Counted from the first letter of the stretch, positions 363-21,106 are shown. The stretch: 22,366 nt of DNA from a virus (IMGVR_UViG_2861079508_000002), one strand, 5' to 3'. The notes: a model not told the origin generated them from the sequence alone. Numbers and translations are program-made.

Positions 363-650
363 TTACTGTCTCTGGCAATCTTTATCGCGATAACGCCTGA
401 AGTACCCTCTCGCTTCCTCATCCATACCAAGAGCCGAATGAGTCCGCTTAACTGCCTGTCTTAAATCTCCGAATCTGTCTGTAGTTGCTGGTGGGCGTGC
501 CGCCTTACGGATACATTCAGAGCGTCTGTTTGCTGCATGTTCACGTTCTTTATCGCCATCTGCCAGCATCATGACTTCTGCCCATCGTGCGGCAGCTCTC
601 CGGTATAGCCCTTTTGACTCCAGCTCTTCAGCTTTCCTGTCCCTTATCAT
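363..650 (-). CDS. PerC/Pch-family transcriptional activator-like protein (95 aa)
   Basis: ORF-track ORF; SD-like GAGAGG 5 nt upstream of the ATG. N-terminal LESKGLYRRAAARWAEVMM resembles the conserved PerC-family core as recalled from memory, not searched. Confidence 0.45.
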   Translation of the reverse strand: MIRDRKAEELESKGLYRRAAARWAEVMMLADGDKEREHAANRRSECIRKAARPPATTDRFGDLRQAVKRTHSALGMDEEARGYFRRYRDKDCQRQ

Positions 651-1369: not shown

Positions 1370-1747
1370 TTAGACGTGCTTGGAGAACAGGTAGCGTGCC
1401 ATCACTAAAACAATGCCAAAGACTTCAGCGAGGGTTCCCCCCATAAATAGGTTTATAACGAAATCACTAAAATGGAGCAGTTTTGCTCCAATAAGGACAA
1501 AAATCCCATTCATAACTAATAGCTGGCCTATCAGAATGCCGATAAACCACCGAGCAAACATTTTTTTCAGTTTTGTGTCTGTTTTTAAATCTTTTGTTTT
1601 TGCACGCTGATGGGCTTTGGCTGGATCCTCATCATTTAGATGTGTGAGGGTTTTTGCTGATGGTGATGAGCCAGAGGCTGGTTCACCTCTGGCTTGTCTT
1701 GCCGCTTGCTTTAGTTTTTCAGATATAGCGTAAGATCTAGACGTCAT
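1370..1747 (-). CDS. small membrane protein, basic hydrophilic N-terminus and two predicted C-terminal TM helices (125 aa)
   Basis: ATG at 1745-1747 lies 3 nt after the TGA of the upstream ImmA-like gene (translational coupling). Hydrophobic segments FIGILIGQLLVMNGIFVLIGA and LFMGGTLAEVFGIVLVMA. AT-rich. Confidence 0.5.
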   Translation of the reverse strand: MTSRSYAISEKLKQAARQARGEPASGSSPSAKTLTHLNDEDPAKAHQRAKTKDLKTDTKLKKMFARWFIGILIGQLLVMNGIFVLIGAKLLHFSDFVINLFMGGTLAEVFGIVLVMARYLFSKHV

Positions 1748-1750
1748 TAC

Positions 1751-2233
1751 TCATCGAAGCCCTAAATTCTTTAGGCGATAACGTATAGCATCATCGGATA
1801 CACCAAAATAGGAAGCCATCATTACTGGTGCATATCCTGCATTGTTGAGGCGTCGAACCTCTTTTTCTGGCATGAGAAGACATGCTGCAAAGTTATTGGC
1901 GAATATTTCTTCGCTGTCTACACCTTGGCTTGCCAGTTTTCCGCGGTAATCAACAAACTCATATTCAAGTGGCTGACCGTTCTCAGTTCGTTTGACGTAA
2001 TGCCCTAACTCATGCGCACACGTAAATCGTTTGCGCACGTTACTATCATTACGATTGAGTATGATTACTGGATCTTGTTCTGGCTCTTTCAGCAATGCGC
2101 CTGAAACATCATCATCAAGCGTGGTTTCAACAACATCCAACCCTAACTCATTGGCAATCCATACTGGATCAACCGGGAATTTCCTATCGCCCCAGATATC
2201 TTTCAAGAGGGCATGTGCAGATGTATTCGACAT
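1751..2233 (-). CDS. ImmA/IrrE-family (COG2856-like) zinc metallopeptidase (160 aa from the ATG)
   Basis: HEXXH motif in CAHELGHY, with a downstream acidic stretch typical of this family. The ORF-track start at 2239 is GTG; the ATG at 2231-2233 has GGAGG 5 nt upstream and is preferred. Confidence 0.7.
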   Translation of the reverse strand: MSNTSAHALLKDIWGDRKFPVDPVWIANELGLDVVETTLDDDVSGALLKEPEQDPVIILNRNDSNVRKRFTCAHELGHYVKRTENGQPLEYEFVDYRGKLASQGVDSEEIFANNFAACLLMPEKEVRRLNNAGYAPVMMASYFGVSDDAIRYRLKNLGLR

Positions 2234-2927
2234 GTTCACCTCCTTTGATTATGGTTAAATAGTCGAAATTTTCACCACTTCCCTTGTGGATATATTTACA
2301 TATAAAAGGTAACTAGTCACTAACCAACACAAATCTTTTTGAAGACAGATGGGGGGTGTTGAACGGTTTTTAAATGATTTCTTTGATTTTTAACAGCAAT
2401 AAGGAGCATTTTTAATGAAATTAGACGTTGATAATAACTTTTTGAGCAATCTTTACATATCATGGTAGCCTTCTATGCTGTTTTTCCAACTAAAAGATTG
2501 GCACATTTATCCGCTGGTAGTGGCGTTTTTTCGCCGCCAGCGCCTCTCTGGTTCCATTCCTTACATCTGTTCAAATTCAGCAACCCTTGCCGCGATCTTG
2601 CCGTTATCGAGAAGCTCTTTCGCTTTTCGGTTAATACTATCGGTCTTCATATTGCCAGCAGCATACGCCATCCGATAATTTCGATGCTACGCGCGCGTAC
2701 TTGTCGCAAAATATCAGGCAAAGGCCAGATTCAGAAAGTCGTGATAACCACCAGCACAACATGAGAGGTCATGTAACGCGATTTATCACACCAGATACAT
2801 GTGATTGGTGTACCCGCATAAAACATCGTCATAGCGCGTCCTGTGCGCATATACGCCGATAATCAACACATCACCACCACTCTGTCTTATGTAGAGAACA
2901 GTTTTATGGTGCTCCCCGCCATCGTGT

Positions 2928-2991
2928 GCGTACTGGTCGGACGCAGTTGCAAAAAATTTTGCAACTGATACCCCTCGCGCGCGTACTGGTC
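2928..2991. repeat. 11-bp inverted repeat CAGTTGCAAAA-aa-TTTTGCAACTG flanked by direct repeats GCGTACTGGTC
   Basis: Inverted repeat at 2944-2967; GCGTACTGGTC at 2928-2938 and 2981-2991; related GCGTACTTGTC at 2695-2705 and GCGTACTGTAA at 3061-3071. No convincing ORF with an SD covers the region. Confidence 0.5.
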
Positions 2992-3182
2992 ACGAAATTG
3001 GTGTTTTGCTGTGGCAGTGATATCAGAAAAATCTTCCTGTTTCACATAAAGCGGATATGCGCGTACTGTAACGACCCCATCAACGGGGATCGGATTTGAA
3101 ATCCCGACCCAAGCTATGTACCAAATGCCATGTCTTGGATATATGATGATTGCCATTCTAAACAACGCTAAAGGGGGTTGGT

Positions 3183-3797
3183 GTGAGCAGAAAAGATACT
3201 AAAGAATTGCTAACTATCTGCATGGTGTACTTTTCAATTTATTTTTGTGCATACATGATAGTCCCAGACGAGTTTGAACATGGCAGTATTATTTATTCCA
3301 TAACATTCTATTTTTTAGAGCTAACACCAATTTTGGCTATCCTTTTGGCAATACATATTTATTTTTCCTTAAAAAAAGAATCGACTAATTGGGAGAAGGT
3401 ATGGAGAGACAGAGGATTTCTAACATCACCTAAAGATGATGCATATGAGAGTGATTTTTCTGACTTTATAACAAACTACTACTCCAGCGAACAATTCAAA
3501 AATAGACTGTCTGATGTTTGGGAAACAGCAATGTATTCCATAGGGATTACATTATTGATACTTACTGGTATTGCTCAATATGTTTTTAACATTGACTTAT
3601 CATTAAATCCTGAAAATTTAATATCGCCATTGATTTTTGGTGAGATATTGATCTTCTCATTCGGAATTTTCTTGAGTGTTGTTCTCTGCTCATTATGCAA
3701 ACTACTGACTAACAGGTATCCAGGTGAAGCAAGGAGAGCAAGAAAGGCAAATCCATATTATCTTTTATTTCCTAATGGAGACAGCAGAGATATCTAA
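3183..3797 (+). CDS. AT-rich predicted four-TM inner-membrane protein (204 aa, GTG start)
   Basis: GGGGG SD 5 nt upstream of GTG at 3183. Four hydrophobic segments (about residues 10-28, 36-61, 116-135, 148-176). Markedly lower GC than flanking DNA; convergent with the ejection-like operon. Confidence 0.55.
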   Translation: MSRKDTKELLTICMVYFSIYFCAYMIVPDEFEHGSIIYSITFYFLELTPILAILLAIHIYFSLKKESTNWEKVWRDRGFLTSPKDDAYESDFSDFITNYYSSEQFKNRLSDVWETAMYSIGITLLILTGIAQYVFNIDLSLNPENLISPLIFGEILIFSFGIFLSVVLCSLCKLLTNRYPGEARRARKANPYYLLFPNGDSRDI

Positions 3798-3816
3798 GCC
3801 ATCCATGGCTAACCAG

Positions 3817-4159
3817 TTATTGAGCTTCTTTTTGTGATGCCTGTGCGACTCTGGTGAGCGATTGTGTGACCGTACTGATCGCTCTGTCATATGCTGTGCT
3901 ACCTTTTGGCGTATTTGCCAGACGTAACAAGGCATTTCGTATAACAGGGCTTTCGTATGCCTTCGCTGCTCCGCCTACGGCACCAGCAGCAGGAACAACA
4001 AACGCAGCCGTTTTTAGCATCCCCGCTAATACTGCTGCGTTTATGATGCCACCACCAACTAACAATCCATAAAGCTGCTGACCATTTAAGTTTTGAACGT
4101 TCGCTTTTGCCGCGTGTCTTGTATCGTTGAGGTATTTAATAACGCCGTCCAGTTCCTTT
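3817..4159 (-). pseudogene. 3' fragment (about 111 codons) of the gene split by the IS66-family insertion
   Basis: ORF-track ORF 3817..4191 runs into the IS; its first 11 codons are IS-derived. Frame is continuous with 6686..8456 once the IS and one TSD copy are removed. Confidence 0.75.
4152..4159. repeat. 8-bp target-site duplication GTTCCTTT, left copy
   Basis: Identical octamer abuts both IS ends (4152-4159 and 6686-6693). Confidence 0.8.
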
Positions 4160-4244
4160 GTAAGCGTAAACCGACCGCCGTATGTAGCCATTAGACAAGA
4201 ATTGGTAACTTAGACGCCCATCTGACACAGACGGACATCTAAGT

Positions 4245-4664
4245 ATGGAATTACAGGACTGGCGAAAAGAACCTCGTAAAAAGTATTCGAATGAATTCAA
4301 ACTTCGTATGGTTGAACTGGCATCACAACCCGGTGCTTGTGTGGCCCAGATTGCTCGAGAAAATGGCGTCAATGATAATGTTATTTTCAAATGGCTCAGA
4401 CTCTGGCAAAACGAAGGGCGTATATCGCGGCGTCTTCCGGTAACAACCTCTTCTGACACTGGCGTTGAATTATTACCAGTGGAGATAACGCCGGATGAGC
4501 CGAAAGAACCGGTGGCTGCTCTTACTCCGTCTTTATCCACCCAGACTACTGTCAGTGCCAGCTCCTGCAAGGTGGAGTTCCGTCACGGTAACATGACGCT
4601 GGAAAATCCTTCACCAGAGCTGCTCACTGTGTTGATCCGTGAACTGACCGGGAGGGGACGATGA
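4245..4664 (+). CDS. tnpA: IS66-family accessory protein TnpA (Orf1), 139 aa
   Basis: First ORF of the IS; overlaps the next ORF by 4 nt; size and position typical of IS66 orf1. Confidence 0.85.
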   Translation: MELQDWRKEPRKKYSNEFKLRMVELASQPGACVAQIARENGVNDNVIFKWLRLWQNEGRISRRLPVTTSSDTGVELLPVEITPDEPKEPVAALTPSLSTQTTVSASSCKVEFRHGNMTLENPSPELLTVLIRELTGRGR

Positions 4665-5011
4665 TCTCACTCCCGTCAGGCACCCGCATCTGGCTCGTTG
4701 CCGGCGTTACCGATATGCGTAAATCCTTCAACGGACTGGGAGAACAGGTACAGCATGTGCTGAATGATAATCCCTTCTCCGGTCACCTGTTCATCTTCCG
4801 TGGCCGACGGGGTGACACGATTAAAATCCTGTGGGCTGATGCTGATGGTCTGTGCCTGTTCACCAAACGCCTGGAGGAAGGCCAGTTTATCTGGCCTGCG
4901 GTACGTGACGGCAAGGTATCCATTACCCGTTCGCAACTGGCAATGCTCCTCGATAAGCTGGACTGGCGTCAGCCAAAAACATCCCGTCTTAACGCACTGA
5001 CAATGTTGTAA
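4661..5011 (+). CDS. tnpB: IS66-family TnpB (Orf2), 116 aa
   Basis: Second ORF, ATGA overlap with orf1; size and sequence character typical of IS66 Orf2 (recalled). Confidence 0.85.
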   Translation: MISLPSGTRIWLVAGVTDMRKSFNGLGEQVQHVLNDNPFSGHLFIFRGRRGDTIKILWADADGLCLFTKRLEEGQFIWPAVRDGKVSITRSQLAMLLDKLDWRQPKTSRLNALTML

Positions 5012-5041
5012 AAATGTCATGGCCGGATTATAAAAACGGTC

Positions 5042-6655
5042 ATGAGTCAGAAATACCTCATTCGGATCACTGAGCTGGAAAGGTTGCTCTCTGAGCAGGC
5101 TGAAGCCCTCCGTCAGAAAGACCAACAACTGAGTCTGGTTGAAGAGACGGAGGTCTTCCTGCGTTCTGCGCTGGCACGTGCCGAAGAAAAGATCGAAGAA
5201 GATGAGCGGGAAATAGAGCATCTGCGGGCCCAGGTGGAAAAACTGCGCCGGATGCTGTTCGGTACCCGTTCTGAAAAACTGCGTCGTGAAGTTGAACAGG
5301 CTGAAGCCCTGCTGAAACGACGCGAACAGAACAGCGATCGTTACAGCGGGCGTGAGGATGACCCGCAGGTTCCCCGCCAGTTGCGACAGTCGCGTCATCG
5401 TCGCCCGTTACCGGCGCATCTGCCCCGCGAAATAAACCGCCTGGAGCCAGAAGAAAGCTGTTGCCCGGAGTGTGGTGGTGAGCTGGATTATCTGGGGGAA
5501 GTCAGCGCAGAACAACTGGAACTGGTGAGCAGCGCCCTGAAAGTGATCCGCACAGAACGGGTAAAAAAAGCCTGTACAAAATGTGACTGCATCGTTGAAG
5601 CACCGGCACCGTCCCGTCCGATAGCGCGTGGTGTCGCGGGCCCGGGGTTACTTGCCCGCGTGTTAACGGGAAAATACTGCGAACACCTGCCACTGTATCG
5701 TCAGAGTGAAATCTTTGCCCGTCAGGGTGTCGAACTGAGCCGTGCGTTACTCTCCAACTGGGTTGACGCGTGCTGCCAGTTAATGACGCCGCTGAATGAT
5801 GCCCTGTACCGTTACGTGATGAACACCCGCAAGGTTCACACTGATGACACACCAGTAAAAGTGCTGGCACCGGGCAGGAAGAAGGCGAAAACAGGATATA
5901 TCTGGACGTATGTCCGGGATGACAGGAATGCCGGTTCGCCAGAGCCTCCGGCGGTCTGGTTCGCCTACTCACCGGATCATCAGGGGAAACATCCGGAGCA
6001 GCACCTTCGTCCCTTCCGGGGTATCCTGCAGGCAGATGCGTTTAATGGCTACGATCGGCTGTTCAGTGCCGGACGTGAAGGCGGCGCGTTGACGGAAGCA
6101 GGATGCTGGGCTCATGCGCGACGTAAAATCCACGATGTATATATCAGTACCAAAAGCGCGACAGCGGAAGAAGCCCTGAAACTAATCGGTGAACTGTACG
6201 CCATCGAGCACGATATACGCGGGTTACCGGTGTCTGAACGCCTGGCGGTCAGGCAAATGCAGAGTAGACCGCTCCTGACTTCCCTGTATAAGCTGATGCA
6301 GGAGAAAGAACACACGTTATCGAAGAAATGTCGTCTGGGAGATGCGTTCCGGTATATCCGGAAGCACTGGGCTGCGTTGTGCAACTTCTGTGATGATGGC
6401 CTGGCTGAGGTAGATAATAATGCCGCAGAAAGAGCGCTTCGTGCAGTCTGTCTCGGGAAGAAAAATTATGTGTTCTTCGGCAGCGATCACGGTGGCGAGC
6501 GTGGAGCACTGTTGTACGGGCTGATCGGCACCTGCCGACTGAACGGTATAGATCCGGAAGCGTATCTGCGCCATATCCTGGGTGTACTGCCGGAATGGCC
6601 TTCCAACCGTGTTGACGAGCTCCTGCCATGGAACGTAGCACTCACCAATAAATAA
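5042..6655 (+). CDS. tnpC: IS66-family transposase TnpC (Orf3), 537 aa
   Basis: Large third ORF with N-terminal coiled-coil-like region, Cys cluster CPECGG...CTKCDC and a long catalytic domain; ends 30 nt before the right IR. Confidence 0.9.
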   Translation: MSQKYLIRITELERLLSEQAEALRQKDQQLSLVEETEVFLRSALARAEEKIEEDEREIEHLRAQVEKLRRMLFGTRSEKLRREVEQAEALLKRREQNSDRYSGREDDPQVPRQLRQSRHRRPLPAHLPREINRLEPEESCCPECGGELDYLGEVSAEQLELVSSALKVIRTERVKKACTKCDCIVEAPAPSRPIARGVAGPGLLARVLTGKYCEHLPLYRQSEIFARQGVELSRALLSNWVDACCQLMTPLNDALYRYVMNTRKVHTDDTPVKVLAPGRKKAKTGYIWTYVRDDRNAGSPEPPAVWFAYSPDHQGKHPEQHLRPFRGILQADAFNGYDRLFSAGREGGALTEAGCWAHARRKIHDVYISTKSATAEEALKLIGELYAIEHDIRGLPVSERLAVRQMQSRPLLTSLYKLMQEKEHTLSKKCRLGDAFRYIRKHWAALCNFCDDGLAEVDNNAAERALRAVCLGKKNYVFFGSDHGGERGALLYGLIGTCRLNGIDPEAYLRHILGVLPEWPSNRVDELLPWNVALTNK

Positions 6656-6685
6656 GTATCAATACGGCACTCCGTTAACGCTTAC

Positions 6686-6693
6686 GTTCCTTT
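6686..6693. repeat. 8-bp target-site duplication GTTCCTTT, right copy
   Basis: Identical to 4152-4159. Confidence 0.8.
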
Positions 6694-8456
6694 CCATGTA
6701 CGCCTTTAAAGAAAGTTGCTGATTGCTTCCTGTTCCGGTGTAACGCATTAATAAACTTCTCAACACTGATATTTCCAGACGGATCAGTCGCCTTATCTAC
6801 AGCATTCTGAACTATGGCTGCTCGTGCGTTTTGCCTACCATTGTCATCCAGAAGCCTGTAAAGCTGAGAACGTTCTGATGGGCTTTGGCTAAAAACGAGT
6901 TTTGTTACATCCTCAGGCGTGGCCTTGCCGCTGGCTATTGCCTTTTGAACGCGCGTTCTTCCCATCATGTCATTGAATTTAGACCATGAGCGATCAACCC
7001 TTGCCATATTAATGGCTTCGTCTGCTCCAAGATTTTTGGCTACGGCTTTTTTCATATCCGCCGTATATGCCTTATAGATAATATCGCTGGCTTTCTGGAG
7101 CGTATCTTTATCAACAGTGTCAGATGACGCCATAAATCGCTTTCGAAGATCGGTTCTGTTTTCCCTCGCCAGACGCAGGTCATTTGGTCCGCTGGTGATA
7201 TCGTCTTTAAATTGCTGCAAGACTTTTACCGCGGCTCTATCCTGAGATTTACCCGGGCGGCTTAACACGGCAATCTGATTGTCGATAGCTTTTACCGTGT
7301 TTGAGAGATCGACAGGGGTATCCCCCATAGCGTCAATTATGCGGTTATATCGCTTTCCTGCTGCCTCAATGAATTTTTGTTGCCCTTTAGTCGCAGATTC
7401 ATAAAGCTGTTTATCAGAAATGCCACCCAGACCATCGCTAAATGTTCTGACTAAATTTTCTCGTGCTTGTTGTTGATTCAGCCGATTCTTACCGGTTCCA
7501 AAAAAAGGAACTCTTTCGCCTAATGTCTGAGCCTGACTCTGCATAAAGGTTTTATCTTTCAGCATGTCACTGGTCATTAACGGCAGATTTCTTTCCGATG
7601 CAAAGTCGACAGCAGCCTTTGCTTCAGGCGACATATCACCACGAACAGCCCTCGAAACCGCACTCGCTGTATTTTCCAGCCCCTTACCAATACCACCAAT
7701 GCCAGCAGAAATTACCGTTTGTAACGGATCAATATCTTCTCCACCAGCGAGGCTGGTGGCTCCCTGTAGTGCTAAATCTGTAGCTGCTGATTTCCCTATG
7801 GCCCCCAGCACCGTTCCGGCCCTGCCCGCTGGTGTAAACGCCAGCGCATTAGCCAGAAACGATGCCACGTCTTGCGGCGATAAACCCGGCTTGTTCAGAG
7901 CATAATCACCGGATGGCAGGGAAACGATAGTGTTACCCTTCTCATCCTGCCTTAATTTCGCTCCCATGCTCTGAAGAATCTTTTCCTGAGATGCGTCAGA
8001 GCCGAAAAGTTGAGACCATCGAGCTTTTAGAGCATCCATGCTGAGTGAGGTTAACTCTGGGGCAAGGTCGACATTTTGCAGTCTCTCCATCTCTGGAGTC
8101 ATTCGGCTTTCGCCTGTTATAGCATCGCGCATCGCAGCCCCAAGGCTGGCTCCCTGTTCTGCTGAACGCTCAAGCCCCTCTCTTTGCTGAGTAGCTAACT
8201 TTGCATACCCTGACGCAAGAGAATTATCAGATGATGTATGTTGAATATTTTGAGTTGCTGATTGGGATCGGTCTATTTCATTCGTTGATGGTAGTGGATA
8301 GGCAGCATAAAAAGCCTGCTTAGCCTGCTCTACACTTTCTCCGGCTTGCGGGGCCACGACTTCATTGAAGTATTGCTCCTGAGCCTGCGCTTTTTGTTCT
8401 GGTGCTAACGCCTGATACTGTGGAGAGGCGATAACATCTTTCCATGCTTTAGCCAT
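6686..8456 (-). pseudogene. 5' fragment (about 590 codons) of the IS-disrupted gene; large Gln/Ala-rich virion/ejection-like protein (P22 gp16-position)
   Basis: ORF-track ORF 6675..8456; its last 3 codons and stop are IS sequence. Start overlaps the upstream stop as TAATG at 8454-8458. Confidence 0.7.
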
Positions 8457-9877
8457 TAATCACCCCATAGTGAAGAAAAGTTACTGCTGGCTGCTGGCTG
8501 TGATACCTGCTCAGATTGCGGCAATGTCTGCGACGAAGAAGAAGTTCCTCTGTCAACTGCTAAAATAACCCGCAAAGCATCATAAGCTCGACCAGAAGCA
8601 GCTTTCAGCGAATTGAACTGGTTTTCCATCTTCCGGCGCTTGGTATCAATGGTTTTTGTGGAGTCGCCAGGCTGAGGGAAATACATTTGATAATATTTTG
8701 ACATTTCAGCAGGTACGATAGCTGCCCCTGTTTCCTGACGGAGTATTGCCATTATTGCGTCATTAGCATTAACAACGTATTGCTGCTCTGTTGGGCTGAG
8801 CGTTAAGTTAGCCAGCGTCCCATTACCCAAAGCATTATTAATGACCGCCACTCGCTGTGGGCTAAGCTGGTCTTTCAGTGTATCTATTGAATCAAGAGCA
8901 TCCCTAACCCTGTATGCAAATCCAGCAGCTTTTTTAGCCCCTTCTGGCGACTTTTCCATGATCTTTTGGGCTGTTGGCAAAGCTATTGGACGAAATCCAT
9001 CTCCAGATATTGGCTGGTTTAGTTTTCCCTGCTCTTCACTTCCGTCTGTGTAGTATTTTGTGACAGTGCCATCATCGTTTTCTCTAACACTCATTAATTT
9101 TTTGGCGTTTGTATTAATTCCAGCCGCTGCCGCAAATGCCGCCGCCCCCTCTGGATCCGCCTTTAACATTTGAGCGTACTGATTGTAATTCTGCATTGCT
9201 GCTGTTGGTGCATATGCTGACGTTAACGCATTTGCTCGGCTAATATCCTGCCCTCTCGCCTGAAGTGCTTCGCCAGCCTGATTGCTGCGGATTGTCTCTG
9301 CCAACTTGCCACGCTCAATATCCCGACCTTCCATTTGATCTTTGATATCGAAATACTTCTCATGACCGAGAGAAAACAGTGCCATACTACCAGCAAGCCG
9401 CTGGAACCCCTGTGGATCATTAACATGCATTTCGGCAACAGACTCAGGAGAAATTCCCAAGCGACGCATTTCATCTTCGTTATCTGCTATGAATTTTCCA
9501 AATGCCCCAGTTCCGAGCGAAGATGCGATTTGAGCACTAGTCGCAAGATGACCAATAGAATTTCTCTGGTCGTCATCAATAAAGCCCATCCCTTTCTGAA
9601 CGCTTTCAAATTCTTCTGGATACTCAGAAATAAGACTGCGCATTTTGTTTCTGTCTCCAGACTCAAAAGCCCCGGCATATGCTTTCTGAAACTCTGCTTT
9701 ACGCTGTTGTTGACGTGCCTGCTGATTAATCTCAGCAACGCCTCTTAGCCCCTGTAGCGCCATTAAACCTACGTTTGGCTGCTGCTGATACTGCACAGGC
9801 TGAGGAACGGAAGAACGAGGAGCATTATCATTTTGCGGTGCCATGCTAGGCAGCCCGCCAAGTTGCCATGTCGCCAT
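8456..9877 (-). CDS. 473-aa protein, candidate P22 gp20-like ejection protein
   Basis: Translationally coupled at both ends (TAATG). Size matches P22 gp20 (471 aa, from memory); Gln/Ala-rich. No profile search done. Confidence 0.5.
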   Translation of the reverse strand: MATWQLGGLPSMAPQNDNAPRSSVPQPVQYQQQPNVGLMALQGLRGVAEINQQARQQQRKAEFQKAYAGAFESGDRNKMRSLISEYPEEFESVQKGMGFIDDDQRNSIGHLATSAQIASSLGTGAFGKFIADNEDEMRRLGISPESVAEMHVNDPQGFQRLAGSMALFSLGHEKYFDIKDQMEGRDIERGKLAETIRSNQAGEALQARGQDISRANALTSAYAPTAAMQNYNQYAQMLKADPEGAAAFAAAAGINTNAKKLMSVRENDDGTVTKYYTDGSEEQGKLNQPISGDGFRPIALPTAQKIMEKSPEGAKKAAGFAYRVRDALDSIDTLKDQLSPQRVAVINNALGNGTLANLTLSPTEQQYVVNANDAIMAILRQETGAAIVPAEMSKYYQMYFPQPGDSTKTIDTKRRKMENQFNSLKAASGRAYDALRVILAVDRGTSSSSQTLPQSEQVSQPAASSNFSSLWGD

Positions 9878-10554
9878 TAGAATCCAAGCCCCCCAACAAG
9901 ACCAATAAGCCCACCACCAATAGCGCCGGCCGCAGTTCCTATTCCAGGAACAACGGAACCAAGTTGCGCACCCGCTAAAGCGCCTGATGCTGCCCCACCA
10001 ATACCACGCGCAAGACTGGATGGCTGCTGCGCCTGACCTGCACGAATAGCGCCAAGCCCCTGCAAGAGTTGTCCGGTATTATTGGCGTAGTTTTGCCCTG
10101 CCGTTGCCTGCCCTGATGCCGCATTCATCCCGACATTTAGCAGGTTTCCATAATTTTGCATTTGCCCACTAAGCCAATTGTTATAAAGCATGGGCGCAAT
10201 GGAAGATAACTGGTTACTGGTAGCTGTTGAGCCAAGCCCCCCGGTAGCTTCTGCTGAGACAAGGTTCTGATAACGGGCCTGATCTGCCTGTGTTTTATAT
10301 AAACCAGAACCAAAGAAATCATTCGCGGCTTTATTCTGCCCTTCCAGAGTCATCAGTCCTTGTAGTTGTTGTAAAGCAGGCAATCCGACTTCTGCATACG
10401 GCTTGAGATTATTCATCACCGTATTCCACTGCTCGCGCTGCAAATCAATTGCCTGCTGCTGGGCCTTCGCCTGAGCTTTAGAGGCACCACCATCACCGCC
10501 TTTTTCGTATACGGCACGATTGAGATGTTTATGAGCTATATGGGTAATTAACAT
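9877..10554 (-). CDS. 225-aa Gly/Ala/Gln-rich protein with glycine-zipper-like C-terminus, candidate P22 gp7-like ejection protein
   Basis: Start overlaps the upstream stop (ATGTTAA). N-terminal YEKGGDGGASK and C-terminal GIGGAASGALAGAQLGSVVPGIGTAAGAIGGGLIGLVGGLGF; size close to P22 gp7 (229 aa, recalled). Confidence 0.5.
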   Translation of the reverse strand: MLITHIAHKHLNRAVYEKGGDGGASKAQAKAQQQAIDLQREQWNTVMNNLKPYAEVGLPALQQLQGLMTLEGQNKAANDFFGSGLYKTQADQARYQNLVSAEATGGLGSTATSNQLSSIAPMLYNNWLSGQMQNYGNLLNVGMNAASGQATAGQNYANNTGQLLQGLGAIRAGQAQQPSSLARGIGGAASGALAGAQLGSVVPGIGTAAGAIGGGLIGLVGGLGF

Positions 10555-11009
10555 TCGCTGAATTCCTTATATTGTTGCCGAGTTAACTGATAAAGCGTTA
10601 CGCCGACGGGTTTACCACATCTGATATAAGCATCATCAAGGTGACCAACACGGGTAGCGCCAAGCAAACGGATAATTGCCCGTCCGTATTTCGTGGTGTC
10701 AGGAACCATGGTAATGCTGTTAAGGAATGGTGAGTTTTCGAGAAGCCATTTGCAGAATAATCGATGCCCTTGCAGTGCATATTCACCACGGAATCCGGGG
10801 TCGTACACCGCATGGCATTCAACAACGCTATGCCAGAAGTTACGCACTTCATGAACGCCAGCCAGCACCAATCCTTCGTAGATGCCGAGATATACCGCAT
10901 CAGGCTTGATGTAGTACGTGTGCCCCGGCTCAACAATATTTTCGGTATTGGCAGGCTCGTTAAGAAAGGCCTGTAATCGCACCGGGTTATCAATAAATTT
11001 TAGTTCCAT
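10548..11009 (-). CDS. 153-aa protein, first large gene of the operon (P22 gene-14 position)
   Basis: ATG at 11007-11009 with GGATGG about 10 nt upstream; stop overlaps the next start. Assignment by synteny only. Confidence 0.45.
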   Translation of the reverse strand: MELKFIDNPVRLQAFLNEPANTENIVEPGHTYYIKPDAVYLGIYEGLVLAGVHEVRNFWHSVVECHAVYDPGFRGEYALQGHRLFCKWLLENSPFLNSITMVPDTTKYGRAIIRLLGATRVGHLDDAYIRCGKPVGVTLYQLTRQQYKEFSEC

Positions 11010-11026
11010 GCGGTGCCATCCATTTT

Positions 11027-11188
11027 CACATACAGCCTGCCAGCGCCTTATCTATTAACCCTCGTGCAATTTCATGCAGAGTTGGCGCTACTCCAATTCC
11101 TGATTTTTTACGCTGCTCTTCCTGAATTTTCTTTATCGCTTCCATTTGCTTCTCACTTATCAATACCGGCTTTACTGAAATAGCCATA
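11027..11188 (-). CDS. 53-aa small protein, possible RHH/Arc-type regulator (below the ORF-track size cutoff)
   Basis: My own translation MAISVKPVLISEKQMEAIKKIQEEQRKKSGIGVAPTLHEIARGLIDKALAGCM; GGGGG SD 4-5 nt upstream of the ATG; TGA lies 16 nt before the next ATG. Minus-strand TATAAT at 11221-11226. Confidence 0.35.
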
Positions 11189-11280
11189 ACGCCCCCTTAG
11201 AACTGTATAAAACAACAGTTATTATAGTTTCACAAATCGCAATATTCATCATCGTAATTGCAAAATATGAAACAAATAGC

Positions 11281-11315
11281 ACAAAAAAATGCCACCGCTC
11301 AGTAGCTGGTGGCAT
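11281..11315 (-). terminator. Rho-independent terminator (8-bp stem ATGCCACC/GGTGGCAT, 11-nt loop, T6-7 run on the minus strand)
   Basis: Plus strand AAAAAAATGCCACCGCTCAGTAGCTGGTGGCAT; hairpin then T-run when read on the minus strand. Separates the primase island from the ejection-like operon promoter. Confidence 0.55.
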
Positions 11316-11681
11316 CGTTCTGTGTGTCAGGTTTTGACAGGTTTTTTATGGACTCTAAAAACTATATTTATGGTATCGCATTACTCTTCACGGCAGGCGC
11401 TTTTCAGTTCTGCCCTTGCTTCTGGCTCCATTGGTAATTTGATTCGCGATCAGCTATGCGGATGGTTTGCTGAACAGGCATAACAACATCTCAGAGGCTA
11501 TTTTTTGAACTACGAAAATTTCGTAGGTCTCTCCTTCAAAAACGTCACGCCCTTGTACACTGGATTTTACAAAAGTCTCGTAAAACTCTTTCCTGTTCTG
11601 GGCTATGTGCCAAACCGCAGCGAATACCTCCGTCTGCCAGATGAGCAAAACATACCTTATAAAGAAAATCGCTGTTTTTGC

Positions 11682-12936: not shown

Positions 12937-15291
12937 TTAAAAAACATCATAACCCCCCATACCGATCAGACGTGCAAACGCAGCCTGTAGAACTCCGACC
13001 TCTGGTAGTTCGTAGAACACGCCATTCCCACGGTCTGGTCTTCCATGCTTCACCAGTCCCATTTGTGCAAGTGATTTACCCAGTAGTGATCTGGCTGCTG
13101 GTTCTTTAAGCTTTTCCCCACGCTCAAGCGACCACGCTACAAATCGACTAACCATATCCTTTGCAAACAAACGGACTTCGCCATTAAACGGAGGTTCATT
13201 GATTAGCTCGCCATAAAGAAACAATTCAACGCCAGACAGCCCCAGCAAGATTTCTTCACGTAAGGCATCGGTCTGTGGCGCTCGTTGAGGGTCAAAACCT
13301 GAGAGATCCACCCCTTTAAGATGCCAAAGCAACTTTGCGGCACCGCCATCATTAAGCCAACTGTACAGCCGATCAAAATACTCCCGGCTCTGTGCTTTTT
13401 CAGGAGATGGCTCAAGCACGAGATAGCGGCGCTCTCTTATCCCTGCCTGTAATACCTGTGTGCTGTTACTGGCAAATATCAACCGGGCAAAATTCGGCAT
13501 TGGTTCAGCATCAATTCCCTTGCGCTCAAGGTTAAACGTCGGTTCGCTAATAATCGCTTTAAGTCTGTCAGCTTCAGACGGCTTGTGGATCGTCACTTCG
13601 TCAGCAAATACCAGTAGCTTGTTAGCAAGTATTGAATTGAAGCGCCCTGAAATATGTCCCGCCCCGTTAATGTGGGCGGCGTACTGCCCCAGTATTTGCA
13701 GCAGCGGTTTAACCGTTGTGCCTTTCCCTGTGCCCGGGACAGATTTCATCACGATTGCCACGGACGGTTTTTCATCAGGCTTTTGGATAATGTGCGCCAT
13801 CCACTGGATAAGATATTGGTATGCCTCTTCATTACCGGCACAGACAACCTGCAACAGGTGATTAAGGTATACCGTGCAATCTCCTTCAATTGGTTCCAGT
13901 GCCAGCCCCTCATACAGATTAAAAACATCGTCAGGGCATTTGTCTGGTACTGGATAAAATCCTACGCCTCCTGGCTTGTAGTTCTTCCCACTCCATGACA
14001 GCCACGCCGATCCCGCCAGCTTTCTGGCGACTCTCGGTTTATGATGAAAATAATGCTGAAATTGTGATAAATCCTCGAAAACGTGCGATACACCGCCGGT
14101 TTGAGAAGGCTTTAGCGACACCACCTTGTGTTTCCCGCCGATGGTGACATGCGTAAACGTCCGGTTGATTTCTTCGAGGACAGCAATTTCATCATCGCTT
14201 AACACCTCGCCAGAACTGATCTCATTCAGCGCCCCGACTGACTGTTTGTGATTTTTCACCTGCGCCCCTTTCCCCCGTGGCTGGTACATCGAATCTTTAA
14301 ATGCTGCTGTGGCTGCCGCCAGCCCGTGTTGTTGGTGATAGTCGTTCCAGTCGGCTTTATAGTCAGTCGGTGGCAGAGACACCCAGCCAGCTACGGAAAT
14401 AGCGGCCCTCTCTGCGGCATCTTTCCCCGTGTTGATCCCTCCACTTTCGGAGTTTCCTTGCTGGTGATCGTTATCTGCGGCAATGATGATTTGTGCCTGT
14501 GGATATGTTCTGCGCATGACTTCCGCTACTGGCAACAGGTTGCCAGCGTCGATTGCTGCCACTGTCATTGCGTCAGGGCGAATTAAATGGCACGACAGGG
14601 CGGTAGCCACCCCCTCAGCAATTATGATGCTGTGAGGTCGTTTCTGTGCGTTTATGGCGTGATATGCCCCCCGCTTTGCTGAACCTGTCAGGAGTCTTTT
14701 TTCACCATGTGAGGTAATTGTCTGTGCTGCTGTGACTGCGCCGGATTTATCCACCAGCGCCAGCAACAGAGATCCATCGGGCAACACGGGGAATGTAAAA
14801 TCACCTACCCCTTTCGCAACCAGATAATCAGATTTGCCGTTTACAGCCTTTCTGCGCATGTCATCAAACTGACGGGAAAACGTATCCCGTCTTTGTTGTT
14901 CGTCCTTCTCTGCCCTTTTCAGGCGCTCCTGTTCGCGTCGCTGGCGCTCGGTTTCCAGTTGTTCCCGTTTCTGGCTGGTGGCTTCTGGTGTTTCCGTTGT
15001 CCGGTAATCAATACCCAGAACATCAGCGGCAAGCAGCGCCGCCTCTGTTGTGTCGCAGTTATTTACGCGTTTAATTAAATCCAGCCCATCACCAGCGCCG
15101 CACTGATTACAGATGAAGCTACCGCGCCCGTTGTCATCGAACCGGAATCGATCTTTGCCCCCACATGCAGGGCAGGGAGCATGACGGCGCGGAGAGTCAG
15201 GGACATTTATGTTCAGGCAGCCCAGCACATGAGGCCAGTTGTTTTCAGACGCACTGATAACCTGACGGATAAGATCAATGTTTCGCATCAC
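12937..15291 (-). CDS. P4 alpha-type primase-helicase (784 aa)
   Basis: N-terminal Zn-ribbon CPACGGKDRFRFDD...CNQCGAGDG; central toprim-like region; C-terminal Walker A VPGTGKGTT. Architecture typical of P4 alpha / PICI Pri-Rep proteins. GTG start at 15291, ATG one codon later. Confidence 0.9.
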   Translation of the reverse strand: MMRNIDLIRQVISASENNWPHVLGCLNINVPDSPRRHAPCPACGGKDRFRFDDNGRGSFICNQCGAGDGLDLIKRVNNCDTTEAALLAADVLGIDYRTTETPEATSQKREQLETERQRREQERLKRAEKDEQQRRDTFSRQFDDMRRKAVNGKSDYLVAKGVGDFTFPVLPDGSLLLALVDKSGAVTAAQTITSHGEKRLLTGSAKRGAYHAINAQKRPHSIIIAEGVATALSCHLIRPDAMTVAAIDAGNLLPVAEVMRRTYPQAQIIIAADNDHQQGNSESGGINTGKDAAERAAISVAGWVSLPPTDYKADWNDYHQQHGLAAATAAFKDSMYQPRGKGAQVKNHKQSVGALNEISSGEVLSDDEIAVLEEINRTFTHVTIGGKHKVVSLKPSQTGGVSHVFEDLSQFQHYFHHKPRVARKLAGSAWLSWSGKNYKPGGVGFYPVPDKCPDDVFNLYEGLALEPIEGDCTVYLNHLLQVVCAGNEEAYQYLIQWMAHIIQKPDEKPSVAIVMKSVPGTGKGTTVKPLLQILGQYAAHINGAGHISGRFNSILANKLLVFADEVTIHKPSEADRLKAIISEPTFNLERKGIDAEPMPNFARLIFASNSTQVLQAGIRERRYLVLEPSPEKAQSREYFDRLYSWLNDGGAAKLLWHLKGVDLSGFDPQRAPQTDALREEILLGLSGVELFLYGELINEPPFNGEVRLFAKDMVSRFVAWSLERGEKLKEPAARSLLGKSLAQMGLVKHGRPDRGNGVFYELPEVGVLQAAFARLIGMGGYDVF

Positions 15292-15646
15292 CGTACCCCA
15301 CGTGGTCTATAGCGTTTGCGATATGGCTAACCAGCATCTGCCACTTGGTTATTCCGTAATCAGTCAGCATGCCATCATTGTTTAGCCACATATCAAATTC
15401 AGCGGTTGTCGCAAGTTTCCACTTATCGCCGTGGACAGTCCTCATTGCTGGGTACATGAATGCGCAAATCAGATCACAAACATCTGACGGCTTCAGAGAT
15501 GTAGTAATGGTGCGTCCCTCTGGCGTCTGAATTGCCATTTTCTCTTCACCAGTAGAATGAAGGTTATGAATCCACACAGCACCAGCAATCTTTGCCACCT
15601 GCTCTCCGATTGCGGAGCTAAGCGCCATTTCTGCATTTTCACGCAT
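15275..15646 (-). CDS. 123-aa hypothetical protein
   Basis: ATG with GGGAGG upstream; overlaps the primase start by 17 nt. Confidence 0.5.
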   Translation of the reverse strand: MRENAEMALSSAIGEQVAKIAGAVWIHNLHSTGEEKMAIQTPEGRTITTSLKPSDVCDLICAFMYPAMRTVHGDKWKLATTAEFDMWLNNDGMLTDYGITKWQMLVSHIANAIDHVGYGDAKH

Positions 15647-15980
15647 GAGAACCTCCCGCTACAGTTGCGCCCATGTCATTAACCATGCTTTGCCATATCT
15701 CACGCCCGACGTCAGTCAATCCGTCCTTAGTGACGCAACGCTCAATAAGCTCGATCCCCACGGTTTCCCACTGCGGGTAGAACACTTTCATGGCTGCCAG
15801 TGTGTAGCTATCGATCAGGCTGCGAACGCCTTTTACTCCATTGACGATTTCCACACGTACGGCCTCGCCGTCCGCATCAACCATGAAATAGTCCCCTCCG
15901 CTGGTGGAGGTAATGTGGTTATACAGTGCCGACGCATACTTATTTGCCAGCGCATTCAGTCGGAAATTTTTAGTAATCAT
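15639..15980 (-). CDS. 113-aa hypothetical protein
   Basis: ATG at 15978-15980 with GAGGA 7 nt upstream; stop overlaps the next gene start. Confidence 0.5.
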   Translation of the reverse strand: MITKNFRLNALANKYASALYNHITSTSGGDYFMVDADGEAVRVEIVNGVKGVRSLIDSYTLAAMKVFYPQWETVGIELIERCVTKDGLTDVGREIWQSMVNDMGATVAGGSHA

Positions 15981-15990
15981 GGTTCCATCC

Positions 15991-16593
15991 TCAGTGCGTC
16001 ACTGGTTCCGATGGCATGCCGTTTTCATTCAGTTCAGCTATAAAGCTGTTGTGAAGTTCAGCAAGCGTTTCACGACCAAATGGAGTCAGTGCTCCTTGTT
16101 CCACATCCATCATGGCTCTGTAGAAAATGATGGAGCGTTCTGTGCCAGACTCGATGCCAAAACGTTCTATCATCGCGCCCTCAATGTTGTTTGCCATAGC
16201 GAGGCGCTCTGCTACTGGATACAGCGGCATGGCAACGATGCCGTTGGAATAAACAGCCACTTCGGAAGGATTGCCAGTATCATCAATGATGCTGACAGTG
16301 CCGTTTTCCTCTCTCATTTCCAGCATGAATACTGTTGCGATCAGCCATCTCCACATAATGACGTTATGCTGTGATGTGTAATCGAAATATCCCTGGTTGC
16401 CGCCATCGGCTATAGCGAGATGTATTGACATACCTTCATCTGGTTTATCGTCATAATCCCCGGCATCCAGACGATTTACGGCATCAATATATGAGACGGC
16501 CTCAACGCGTTCTGTCATGCCATCGTTGCTGCGGCACATGATGTTTACGCCGTCAGGCGTTGCTTCTGCATGGAAAGTTAAGAAATTATTCAT
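15991..16593 (-). CDS. 200-aa hypothetical protein (preferred ATG at 16593; ORF track extends to 16698)
   Basis: The ATG at 16591-16593 forms an ATGAATAA overlap with the stop of the upstream ORF; the longer track version would overlap that ORF by about 110 nt. Confidence 0.5.
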   Translation of the reverse strand: MNNFLTFHAEATPDGVNIMCRSNDGMTERVEAVSYIDAVNRLDAGDYDDKPDEGMSIHLAIADGGNQGYFDYTSQHNVIMWRWLIATVFMLEMREENGTVSIIDDTGNPSEVAVYSNGIVAMPLYPVAERLAMANNIEGAMIERFGIESGTERSIIFYRAMMDVEQGALTPFGRETLAELHNSFIAELNENGMPSEPVTH

Positions 16594-16807
16594 GTTTCGC
16601 CTCGCCTGAATGATTCTGTAACTCATATTTGCCCAACAATTCGTCCGCTTCCTGAATAGCTTCTGGTACGCCATTGAGCAGTGACATAACCGCGCCAATC
16701 ATTAACTTGTCTCTGTTGCTTGGGCTGGCCCCTTCAAGCCAGAACCCTAAAACAGTCTGAACCTGTTCAATGCGACATTGCGCTTCAATGAGCTGGATGT
16801 TGGTCAT
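16586..16807 (-). CDS. 73-aa hypothetical protein
   Basis: ORF-track ORF, coupled to neighbours by overlapping stop/start. Confidence 0.45.
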   Translation of the reverse strand: MTNIQLIEAQCRIEQVQTVLGFWLEGASPSNRDKLMIGAVMSLLNGVPEAIQEADELLGKYELQNHSGEAKHE

Positions 16808-17067
16808 TTCGCACTCTCCACATCGATTAAACTGATATCTATCAGGGAGGTAACTTTTTGTAGCCAGCTATTGATTACTGTCGCCTGTTCCCCTCCCACC
16901 GAGGGAATAATCTCATTCATCACATGAACCAGACCTGTGCGCGCTCTGGTAAGCCGTTCAGTCGCGCAATCTGCGGGAGTGAATGTGTCTGGATATGGCT
17001 CTTCGCGCCCCAGCAATGATTCAATTTCCAGCTCACACGGATGACGATAAATTAAGTTGATATTCAT
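16804..17067 (-). CDS. 87-aa hypothetical protein
   Basis: ORF-track ORF, ATGA-type overlaps at both ends. Confidence 0.45.
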   Translation of the reverse strand: MNINLIYRHPCELEIESLLGREEPYPDTFTPADCATERLTRARTGLVHVMNEIIPSVGGEQATVINSWLQKVTSLIDISLIDVESAK

Positions 17068-17258
17068 TTTTCACCACCAAGAATTACCAGCTCTGCACGG
17101 GCATCGTTAACCAAAGATGAGCACGCTTTAATCGCATCCACGACATCAGCAGCGTCCATTTCTTCAGCCGAAAGACTGACAGCAACCAGGACAGCCGCTG
17201 CTTGCTCGATTAATTGAAGTGCGGACGTAAGGCGAGGGGTATTAATTGAGTTATTCAT
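17064..17258 (-). CDS. 64-aa hypothetical protein (preferred ATG at 17258; track start 17315 is GTG)
   Basis: ATG at 17256-17258 has GGGGG about 7 nt upstream and forms an ATGAATAA overlap with the upstream stop. Confidence 0.45.
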   Translation of the reverse strand: MNNSINTPRLTSALQLIEQAAAVLVAVSLSAEEMDAADVVDAIKACSSLVNDARAELVILGGEK

Positions 17259-17469
17259 TGGTTGCCCCCGTTTTGCATGGCATTTGTCCACCTTCCAGCA
17301 GGAAATGAACGTCACGAACGGCGAGATCCAATATCGCGAGTAACGCCTTCAGTTTTTCGTCTCGTGAGGGAGAGTTGCTCACCAGAATGTCATTAATCAC
17401 TTCTGTCAGTGTGATGATCTGGCTTGTGCGTTCGAGGGGATCCATATGCACATCGTAGGTTTTAATCAT
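17251..17469 (-). CDS. 72-aa hypothetical protein; may be an independent gene or the C-terminus of the long ORF from 18282
   Basis: ATG at 17467-17469 with strong GGAGGTG SD; balanced helical-looking composition (MIKTYDVHMDPLERTSQIITLTEVINDILV...). In frame with ORF 17251..18282. Confidence 0.5.
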   Translation of the reverse strand: MIKTYDVHMDPLERTSQIITLTEVINDILVSNSPSRDEKLKALLAILDLAVRDVHFLLEGGQMPCKTGATNE

Positions 17470-17656
17470 GTGCCACCTCCATGCGGATACGACCAGCAAA
17501 AAAGCAGACGTGATCGCGCACCAGAGAACGGCGAGCATCGCGTTCAGACTCGGCAGCAATATGATGAATTTTGGCGGTAATTGTCGGGCAATCGCGGCGA
17601 ACTGCGGCGATAATCCAGATAAATTGCGGTTTTTGGGTAGGGGTAGTAGCCAGCAT
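17462..17656 (-). CDS. 64-aa hypothetical protein, overlaps the long ORF in another frame
   Basis: GGAGG 7 nt upstream of the ATG at 17654-17656; stop overlaps the ATG of the 72-aa gene. Conflicts with the long-ORF model. Confidence 0.4.
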   Translation of the reverse strand: MLATTPTQKPQFIWIIAAVRRDCPTITAKIHHIAAESERDARRSLVRDHVCFFAGRIRMEVAHD

Positions 17657-18282
17657 GTGGCATCCTCCGATAACGTTGGCTTGTTATAACCACCGCAGAA
17701 GAGACCAATCTTGCTGGCGGTGGACTGTACGGAGTTGGCCTTACTGGCGTTATCGGAAACCAGCCTACCCGAAGGTAGCCCCATACAGCCCACCATTGAT
17801 AAGGTGTGCGTGTGCGCCGATACAAAAAAAGACGCTGGCGCGTCATGTATCGCCGATAACTCCAGCAGGAGGCCAATCCCGGCACCCGTTTTATGAGGTG
17901 CCTTATAACCATAAACCGTGTTGCCGCATAACGGCAAGCTCTTTTTTATGGACTCCGAAAACTCACTATTGGAAGAACCAGAAGCACAGTACATCGCGCT
18001 CATTTCGTTAACGTCACGCGCATGGACGAAGGTTTTTGTGGAGTCACTACGCGAGAAGAGAAAGCCATCTACGACCAGAAATTCTCTGGCGCAGCCGCTG
18101 ACCTTCTCAACGCTAACACCATCGACCGTAATTTCTGACATGGTTAAGGCATCCGCTCCTACCACCAGCAAATGACAAACTTTGCTTGTATCTGCTGTAT
18201 TAATGCCTGACTTTGCTGTCATATTGCTGGATTTTGGCGACATACCAGCCAGTGAAAATATCTTCTTCTGGACGGTTAGCAT
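17470..18282 (-). other. ambiguous stretch: upstream part of ORF 17251..18282 (strong GGAGG SD at 18282), no in-frame stop, contains terminator-like hairpins
   Basis: Start at 18280-18282 overlaps the upstream stop by 7 nt. Minus-strand hairpin GACGC-GCCA-GCGTC plus T7 at 17824-17844; plus-strand hairpin TTGCCG-CATAA-CGGCAA plus T6 at 17921-17947. Several frames open on both strands. Confidence 0.3.
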
Positions 18283-18458
18283 TTGTTAACCTCCGCGAAC
18301 TCCTTCATGAAACGTGCCAGCGGTTGTACGCATGGCGATTGATACCCGTCGCGATAAAACGTCACTCGGTTGTGAGACACGCTTTCGACAGTAACGAGTG
18401 CTCCGTGGGCATCTTTGTAGCGTTTTTGAGGTTGTGGTGTTCCTGTCGGCTTAAACAT
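18276..18458 (-). CDS. 60-aa hypothetical protein (ATG at 18458; track start 18545 overlaps the upstream gene)
   Basis: ATG at 18456-18458 with GGAGG upstream, 5 nt after the stop of the antirepressor-like gene. Confidence 0.5.
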   Translation of the reverse strand: MFKPTGTPQPQKRYKDAHGALVTVESVSHNRVTFYRDGYQSPCVQPLARFMKEFAEVNKC

Positions 18459-19284: not shown

Positions 19285-19296
19285 TTTCAGTCTCCG

Positions 19297-19728
19297 TTAG
19301 GCGGCGGTGAGATTGTCCGGGTATAGATTGAGAATGTCGGCAATTTCCTGCTGAGAAAGTCCGTTGTGATCATTTATGTTCGCAAGATGGTTAACATGAG
19401 TGATCACTTTCAGAACATCACCACGGCAGGAGAAACGGTAGCGAAGGTGTGTTCCGATACCATCAGGATTCTTTTCGTCGATACGCTCCAGAGTGATTCC
19501 AAGCTGGCGTTCTAACTCTGTTGCATAGTTACGACCAGAAGACAGACGGCAGTAGCGAAGAATGTCATTTTCTGTCCATCCCTCTATACCAGTACGCAGC
19601 ATATAGACTCTGGCACGATGCTTTTTCGGTGTGCGCTTTGGTGCTTGAAGGGATTTTGTCAGGGGCGTAACATCAGATACGCGAATATCTGAATTAGCCG
19701 CCTGTAATGGGCGGTTTTTCTTTTCCAT
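19297..19728 (-). CDS. 143-aa hypothetical protein, possibly DNA-binding
   Basis: ATG overlaps the alpA-like stop (ATGA); AAGGTGG SD. Basic N-terminus. Confidence 0.5.
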   Translation of the reverse strand: MEKKNRPLQAANSDIRVSDVTPLTKSLQAPKRTPKKHRARVYMLRTGIEGWTENDILRYCRLSSGRNYATELERQLGITLERIDEKNPDGIGTHLRYRFSCRGDVLKVITHVNHLANINDHNGLSQQEIADILNLYPDNLTAA

Positions 19729-21011: not shown

Positions 21012-21106
21012 TGCGTCACCTTTTACGCTGCGCCTTATTTTGTGATTGAGCCAGGCGGTAAGGCTTCCCGCTTTTCGCCCCGTCGAGCTAGGCTCAATCT
21101 ATTCAG

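Follow-up and report, generated by a model that had tools for sequence, protein, structure and literature searches.

A probable SieA-family gene next to ejection-protein genes on an EcCIMP1-like satellite element of Escherichia coli

The DNA analyzed here (the window) is a stretch of 22,366 nt from the viral entry IMGVR_UViG_2861079508_000002, and the feature under study, the sieA-like gene, is an intact ORF of 615 bp and 204 codons with a GTG start in the mechanical ORF list (Table 1). The GTG start was supported by the alignment with a Citrobacter homologue, which begins at residue 1, and by RefSeq, where the same 615-bp ORF is annotated in other E. coli genomes as a "hypothetical protein" (WP_021521930.1 and WP_000087355.1). 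The G+C content of the gene is 33.2%, compared with 47.6% for the whole window and 47–48% for the flanking ejection genes, the gp16-like gene included. It was the lowest-G+C region among all segments of 615 bp (mean 0.476, sd 0.046, minimum 0.332 at position 3191), in line with the strong AT-richness claimed in a preliminary description of this locus.

Table 1. Genes and elements located in the window of 22,366 nt.
Feature	Position	Strand	Description and evidence
PerC	363-650		
Shine-Dalgarno-like AAGGGGG	3171-3177	+	5 nt 5' of the GTG; read from the sequence
sieA-like gene	3183-3797	+	predicted four-helix membrane protein, 204 aa; ORF, homology, hydropathy
gp16-like gene, 3' fragment	3817-4159	-	approximately the last 114 codons; PHROGs phrog_770 "DNA transfer protein", phrog_29117
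IS66-family element	4160-6685	+	blastn against the uninterrupted copy L002; Pfam HTH_Tnp_1, TnpB_IS66, DDE_Tnp_IS66
tnpA of the IS66-family element	4245-4664		
tnpB of the IS66-family element	4661-5011		
tnpC of the IS66-family element	5042-6655		
gp16-like gene, 5' part	6686-8456	-	ORF listed as 6675-8456, 593 codons; phrog_770, 2e-125
gp20-like ejection protein gene	8456-9877	-	Pfam Inj_translocase 4.5e-58, phrog_917
Gene 7 homologue	downstream	-	Pfam P22_gp7 6.6e-73
Gene 14 homologue	downstream	-	Pfam DUF2824 4.2e-62
Primase	12937-15291		DUF5906 or DUF927 type
AlpA	19728-19931		
Integrase	21107-22366		

Four hydrophobic segments (about residues 10–27, 37–61, 116–135, and 149–175) and a polar loop of 54 aa (residues 62–115) were predicted by Kyte-Doolittle hydropathy. 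An AlphaFold2 model built from 12 sequences (pLDDT 75.7) agreed with these segments, placing long helices at residues 3–30, 36–64, 105–133, and 149–176, while a model built from 3 sequences (pLDDT 49) was unusable. The earlier reading of a 204-aa protein with four hydrophobic helices and a loop of roughly 55 residues is therefore borne out at the level of prediction. The Lys and Arg residues are located at the N-terminus (three), in the long loop (eight), and in the C-terminal tail (six), with none in the two short connecting loops. Since this distribution fits the positive-inside rule, a cytoplasmic location is predicted for the N-terminus, for the 54-residue loop, and for the basic C-terminal tail carrying TNRYPGEARRARK.

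The sieA-like gene stands as the sole plus-strand gene between minus-strand genes on either side and converges with the gp16-like gene, with a stop-to-stop gap of 19 nt. The description of a stand-alone gene facing a gp16-like gene was thus correct in orientation and spacing, but the gp16-like gene proved to be split by an IS66-family element. The roughly 100 nt preceding the sieA-like gene yielded no convincing promoter, the best promoter-like site being a putative one at 2652–2679, approximately 500 nt upstream; nor did terminator scanning and RNA folding find an intrinsic terminator in the 19-nt gap. Hence, the expression of this gene can only be inferred.

The gp14, gp7, gp20, and gp16 genes together span positions 6686–11009. 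The 3' fragment of the gp16-like gene is collinear with the intact 2106-bp gene of another E. coli copy of the island, L002, and the 5' part shares 72% identity with the gp16 counterpart in the podophage Escherichia phage N7. The IS66-family element between them is flanked by an 8-bp target duplication (4152–4159 and 6686–6693). The IS66/gp16 junction was absent from all of the complete E. coli genomes of the collection, so the insertion looks strain-specific, and the disruption of the gp16-like gene shows that the copy of the element present in the window is decaying. In the copy L008, the island carries an IS3 element and a deletion. Moreover, copies L001, L002, and L009 do not contain gp7 and gp14 (positions 9742–11039 of the window), with gp20 and gp16 being the only ones kept and a 174-bp ORF lying in between; thus, the set of ejection genes is not uniform among the satellites.

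Judged from its sequence, the window is essentially one EcCIMP1-like satellite, a phage-inducible chromosomal island (PICI), and not a P22-like prophage. The order of the island is integrase, AlpA, a 143-aa ORF, AntA/AntB, the ash/Icd region with the C4 and isrK RNAs, small genes, and the primase, followed by gp14 and gp7 (when present), gp20, gp16, the sieA-like gene facing gp16, a variable cassette, a 147-aa ORF, and PerC; the element lies at thrW or beside yicC. The only virion-related genes in the window are gp14, gp7, gp20, and gp16. Coat, portal, terminase, tailspike, and lysis genes were found neither among the larger ORFs of the window nor in the annotation beside the E. coli copies L001, L002, L008, and L009. 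The gene 16 homologue adjoins the sieA-like gene, and no gene 9 is present there. Three more E. coli copies, in the IMG/VR contigs L014–L016, could be aligned with the island of the window. Every E. coli copy of the sieA-like gene that was examined lay in an EcCIMP1-like satellite, and none in a P22-like prophage.

EcCIMP1, a PICI of 20 kb found in E. coli MP1, is induced, packaged, and transduced by the P22-like phage Kapi1, and its ejection genes were labelled "DNA transfer" (Pick et al., 2025, PMC11773190). It adds to the superinfection immunity against Kapi1, and the PADLOC and DefenseFinder analyses of EcCIMP1 were empty (PMC11773190). EcCIMP1 and the window have in common the order int, AlpA, antA/B, ash/Icd, primase, ejection genes, and PerC, and their identity is 98% over positions 9717–11586, 97% over 14454–19738, and 95% over 2597–3110. 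These near-identical stretches include the gp14/gp7 region and a longer segment that takes in the 5' part of the primase gene, the small genes, ash, and antA/B and reaches as far as the 143-aa ORF by alpA. In contrast, the integrase and the helicase half of the primase differ between the two elements, and the window lies beside yicC whereas EcCIMP1 is located at thrW. Furthermore, the block 3110–9717, comprising the sieA-like gene, gp16, and most of gp20, is replaced as one unit in EcCIMP1, which has there a gene for a 232-aa lipoprotein, a gp16 with an SLT domain, and a different gp20. Since EcCIMP1 does not contain the sieA-like gene, its superinfection immunity cannot be credited to that gene. 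In both elements, however, the slot after gene 16 holds a gene for an envelope protein.

The EcCIMP1 gene in this slot (L013, 12632–13330, minus strand) is on the same strand as its gp16 and encodes a predicted lipoprotein with the lipobox LLAGC. No match to it was found in Pfam, PHROGs, NCBIfam, or PADLOC. This lipoprotein is a candidate for the source of the superinfection immunity of EcCIMP1.

Other parts of the island were also inspected. The variable cassette, at 1333–2680, lies between the 147-aa ORF by PerC and the sieA-like gene. In the window it encodes a stand-alone M78/ImmA-like peptidase (1751–2239, minus strand; PADLOC CapP, 4.9e-25) and a 125-aa membrane protein (1370–1747, minus strand), in L008 and L009 it carries AbiD (7e-58), and in L001 and L002 a 222-bp ORF; by these contents, it resembles a hotspot for defence genes. 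A 430-bp segment located immediately before the sieA-like gene (2681–3110) has no annotated gene and no phage match. It is present at ≥95% identity in 522 of 5426 complete E. coli genomes and in EcCIMP1 too, and might serve as a pac site, an origin, or a promoter region or contain a small gene. Matches at the Rfam gathering score were obtained for a C4 antisense RNA (17713–17800), isrK (17825–17901), and an int-alpA RNA (21032–21098), all of them on the minus strand. A 343-codon ORF (17251–18282) overlaps the C4 and isrK RNAs; it is probably not a gene, and related islands are annotated with ash/Icd-like genes at this place.

SieA is the best-understood prophage protein stopping the entry of phage DNA at the inner membrane. 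In BLASTP comparisons, the sieA-like protein was 33% identical to HS1 SieA over 118 aa (E = 1e-9) and 29% identical to P22 SieA over the C-terminal 108 aa (E = 3e-8). The comparison of a profile of its clade with a profile of P22, HS1, and Morganella SieA by hhalign yielded a probability of 98.6% (E = 1.1e-15) over 121 columns, spanning the loop, helices 3–4, and the tail. Its single match in PHROGs was phrog_7745, "superinfection exclusion SieA-like" (E = 1.9e-4, residues 91–186). The detectable similarity to the SieA proteins that have been assayed spares helices 1–2, and the N-terminal half is unrelated to them in sequence. In the multiple alignment, the three helices of P22 SieA correspond to helices 2–4 of the sieA-like protein; its extra helix is N-terminal, as in SieA types B and C, which have one additional helix at this end (PMC10883804). 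Low G+C is also common to the family, with 33.7% for P22 sieA and 36.3% for HS1 sieA.

Two motifs are shared with the known proteins. The published motif of the SieA family, FxRYPxEAxxFNK, is predicted to be cytoplasmic (PMC10883804). The corresponding stretch of the sieA-like protein, TNRYPGEARRARK (residues 176–188, with RYPGEA at 178–183), keeps the RYPxEA core and the final K, with T in place of the first F and AR in place of FN. An exhaustive HMMER profile search of 1.84 billion representative proteins yielded 42 clusters at E ≤ 1e-3, nearly all of which end in LT[GN]RYPG[EQ]A..RK. The second motif, (Y/F)S(S/P/N)Exx.NR(I/L/V)(S/T)D, was common to the sieA-like protein, P22 SieA, and HS1 SieA in the multiple alignment, and reads YSSExxxNRLSD in the loop of the sieA-like protein (NRLSD, residues 107–111). 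Taken together, these comparisons make it very probable that the sieA-like protein belongs to the SieA superinfection-exclusion family, and the homology to SieA that had been proposed for checking was positive in each of them.

Other searches delimited this result. The word-indexed protein search reached only the E. coli and Citrobacter relatives, and the remaining family was reached by the HMMER profile search. No match was obtained by tblastn against 50,697 phage records, so this branch appears to be absent from sequenced phages. No model of Pfam, NCBIfam, or PADLOC matched any SieA, that of P22 included, which accounts for the "hypothetical protein" label; PADLOC-DB 2.0.0 likewise gave no match for the sieA-like protein and also missed the EcCIMP1 lipoprotein. 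A precomputed Pfam tag, PF26849, is attached to two relatives and was not reproduced by our own Pfam search. Foldseek searches of BFVD and PDB with the AlphaFold2 model of pLDDT 75.7 returned nothing below E = 0.5 and the PDB sequence-profile search gave no match; hence, structural corroboration of the SieA assignment is absent. No loci were confirmed when the species genomes of GTDB were scanned with the alignment of the clade. The literature search found no paper connecting SieA with PICIs and none mentioning the accessions of the sieA-like proteins.

Within the family, the sieA-like protein has an overall identity of 15–21% to types A and B (15–17% to the two assayed proteins), and its identity to a Providencia/Morganella group is about 30%; for comparison, P22 SieA (type A) and HS1 SieA (type B) are 27% identical in the same identity matrix. 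A neighbour-joining tree placed the sieA-like protein with those of Citrobacter and Serratia in a sub-branch sister to the Providencia/Morganella group. The SieA-like proteins of Providencia, Morganella, and Proteus are presumably type C of Leavitt et al., an equation made from the genus names only, and the sieA-like protein would accordingly belong to a fourth type or else to a deep branch of type C comprising E. coli, Citrobacter, and Serratia. The homologues of Citrobacter freundii (49% identity), Serratia fonticola (39%), and Providencia rettgeri and Proteus mirabilis (about 30–34%, varying with the alignment) are all encoded in full P22-like prophages, and relatives in two IMG/VR contigs are found in the same arrangement. 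Around these nearest relatives, the genes run from tailspike through (ant, arc) and mnt to the sieA-like gene; gene 16, which faces it, comes next, then gene 20, gene 7, and so on to the coat gene. These relatives thus occupy exactly the sieA slot of the P22 record, between genes 16 and 9. Additionally, a 199-aa member of the SieA clade (about 30–37% identity, varying with the alignment) was observed in L018 (7266–8594) and L017. It lies directly 3' of a cI-type (HTH plus S24) repressor, a position expressed in lysogens, and adjoins O-type and DnaB-type replication genes rather than gene 16. This location suggests that SieA-type genes also fill the slots for morons in immunity regions.

The function of the SieA family has been established with two of its members. 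P22 SieA acts alone, being sufficient for exclusion without other phage genes, and HS1 SieA, which is 24% identical to it, was shown experimentally to exclude P22-like phages (Leavitt et al., 2024, PMC10883804). At this level of identity, the exclusion phenotypes of types A and B were indistinguishable (PMC10883804). Both are inner-membrane proteins that block DNA injection by P22-like phages only, and the escape mutations of P22 fall in gp16 and gp20, which are therefore the genetic targets (PMC10883804). A high multiplicity of infection partly overcomes SieA, which suggests the titration of a scarce protein, and an alternative model proposes the occlusion of a host partner such as YajC (PMC10883804).

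By analogy with these proteins, the sieA-like protein would exclude P22-like phages at DNA entry, a reading to which we assign a probability of roughly 0.7. As for P22 and HS1 SieA, the resident element would express the protein constitutively but sparingly, and the protein would reside in the inner membrane, where it would halt the DNA delivery of incoming P22-like podophages before completion. Its target may be the trans-envelope conduit of gp20 and gp16, or the docking of this conduit at the inner membrane; the adsorption of the phage would be unaffected and the cell would survive. The host of the satellite would be protected from superinfection by the class of phages on which the satellite depends. 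Since P22-like helpers mobilise the EcCIMP1 family, the sieA-like gene would guard the host against the satellite's own class of helpers.

It is unlikely that a membrane protein of SieA fold performs another job here, either as an abortive-infection or toxic effector or by assisting or discriminating the gp20/gp16 conduit of the satellite itself instead of obstructing foreign conduits. Such a role would be favoured by the physical linkage of the gene to satellite-borne alleles of ejection proteins, the defence-type neighbours (AbiD in L008 and L009, the CapP-related M78 peptidase in the window), the slower growth upon overproduction of P22 SieA, as given for Hofer et al. in the supplement of PMC10883804, and an N-terminal half with no sequence relation to the assayed SieA proteins. 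However, P22 SieA acts at DNA entry and does not kill the host (PMC10883804), for which reason abortive infection is not favoured. The conserved cytoplasmic motifs are kept in the sieA-like protein, and its closest relatives occupy lysogen-expressed prophage positions typical of exclusion genes. Of the two possibilities raised in the preliminary description, an exclusion or an abortive-infection determinant, the former is upheld by the homology to SieA and the latter recedes.

The distribution of the gene bears on a further alternative, that of a passive hitch-hiker, brought in with the gp20–gp16 block when the island recombined with a P22-like prophage, and either without a role in the satellite or silent there. 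The gene is accessory and confined to mobile elements, being present in 101 of 5426 complete E. coli genomes (1.9%), always on the chromosome and at 98.9–100% identity. The eight E. coli copies compared represent six alleles, all of them intact and free of stop codons, with five synonymous and two non-synonymous differences. The exchange of the block 3110–9717 as a single unit relative to EcCIMP1, the signs of decay among the island copies (IS66 in gp16, the IS3 element and deletion of L008, the missing gp7/gp14 of L001, L002, and L009), and the lack of a clear promoter are what would be expected of such a passenger. Nevertheless, the ORF stayed intact in 8/8 copies although the neighbouring ejection genes are broken, and the ratio of five to two, small as these counts are, points to purifying selection even beside damaged genes. 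Its retention in 101 genomes at near identity and the ability of P22 SieA to function without other phage genes argue in the same direction, and a passenger without function is considered quite improbable.

A housekeeping membrane transporter or antiporter subunit, which the earlier description had named as the finding that would speak against its proposal, was sought and rejected as hardly conceivable, given the homology to SieA and a gene that is accessory, AT-rich, and carried only by mobile elements, whereas the one pointer to it, a weak Pfam MnhB match (E = 0.027, 15.1 bits against a cut-off of 22.5), is under the curated threshold and found no support in NCBIfam, PDB sequences, or Foldseek.

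Exclusion at DNA entry thus remains the preferred reading, and the linkage with gp20 and gp16, as the sole support, leads to a doubtful but possible extension of it: satellites that depend on P22-like helpers may carry matched sets of ejection proteins and an entry blocker. In such a set, the SieA homologue borne by the PICI would close the inner membrane to phages of the helper type, and the co-inherited gp20/gp16 alleles would still admit satellite-loaded particles into cells carrying the sieA-like gene. The idea fits with the position of the SieA-escape mutations of P22 in precisely these two genes. EcCIMP1, with its lipoprotein and its different gp20/gp16 pair, would then offer another, non-homologous version of the set, which could underlie the immunity that this element confers.

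If the assignment is correct, the SieA family gains a deep branch that includes an unannotated gene of about 2% of the complete E. coli genomes, and obvious targets for mutagenesis emerge in the loop motif NR(I/L)(S/T)D and the tail motif RYPGEA, both of which the sampled branches have kept. All of the sieA genes examined by Leavitt et al. sat in P22-like prophages (PMC10883804). The unexpected feature of the present locus is a SieA-family gene carried by a PICI alongside satellite-borne genes for ejection proteins, so that sieA-type genes would not be confined to P22-like prophages. The locus also suggests a candidate mechanism by which satellites could make their hosts immune to superinfection by P22-like phages, in a family that gave no match with PADLOC or DefenseFinder.

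Among the closest parallels to this locus are the sieA genes of P22 and HS1. The sieA gene of P22 (type A) is also small, AT-rich, and convergent on gene 16, with 22 nt between them in the record NC_002371, which confirms the position of sieA after gene 16 given in the preliminary description. Its product is a helical inner-membrane protein, as is predicted for the sieA-like protein, and likewise has the loop motif (F/Y)S.E...NR(I/L)(T/S)D and a C-terminal RYPGEA. P22 SieA differs in having 164 aa, whereas the sieA-like protein has 204 aa with an additional N-terminal helix; their overall identity is about 16%, the tail reads FNK in P22 and ARK here, and the carrier is a phage in one case and a PICI in the other. 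HS1 SieA (type B, EcHS_A0321) is similar in length, with 212 aa as annotated, and has four predicted helices. It shares with the sieA-like protein the sequence NRYPGEAR, the host species E. coli, and the convergent layout (a gap of 21 nt), with an overall identity of about 17%; HS1, however, sits at thrW as a complete P22-like prophage that includes coat, portal, tailspike, and mnt/arc/ant genes, unlike the element of the window. The greatest likeness is found in the proteins of Providencia, Morganella, Proteus, Citrobacter, and Serratia, which form the closest clade in the tree, align over the full length at 30–49%, and have four helices, both motifs, and the C-terminal tail P(Y/F)(Y/F)L(L/I) in common with the sieA-like protein. 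The genes of Citrobacter, Serratia, and Providencia follow mnt within complete P22-like prophages, in contrast to the sieA-like gene of the window.
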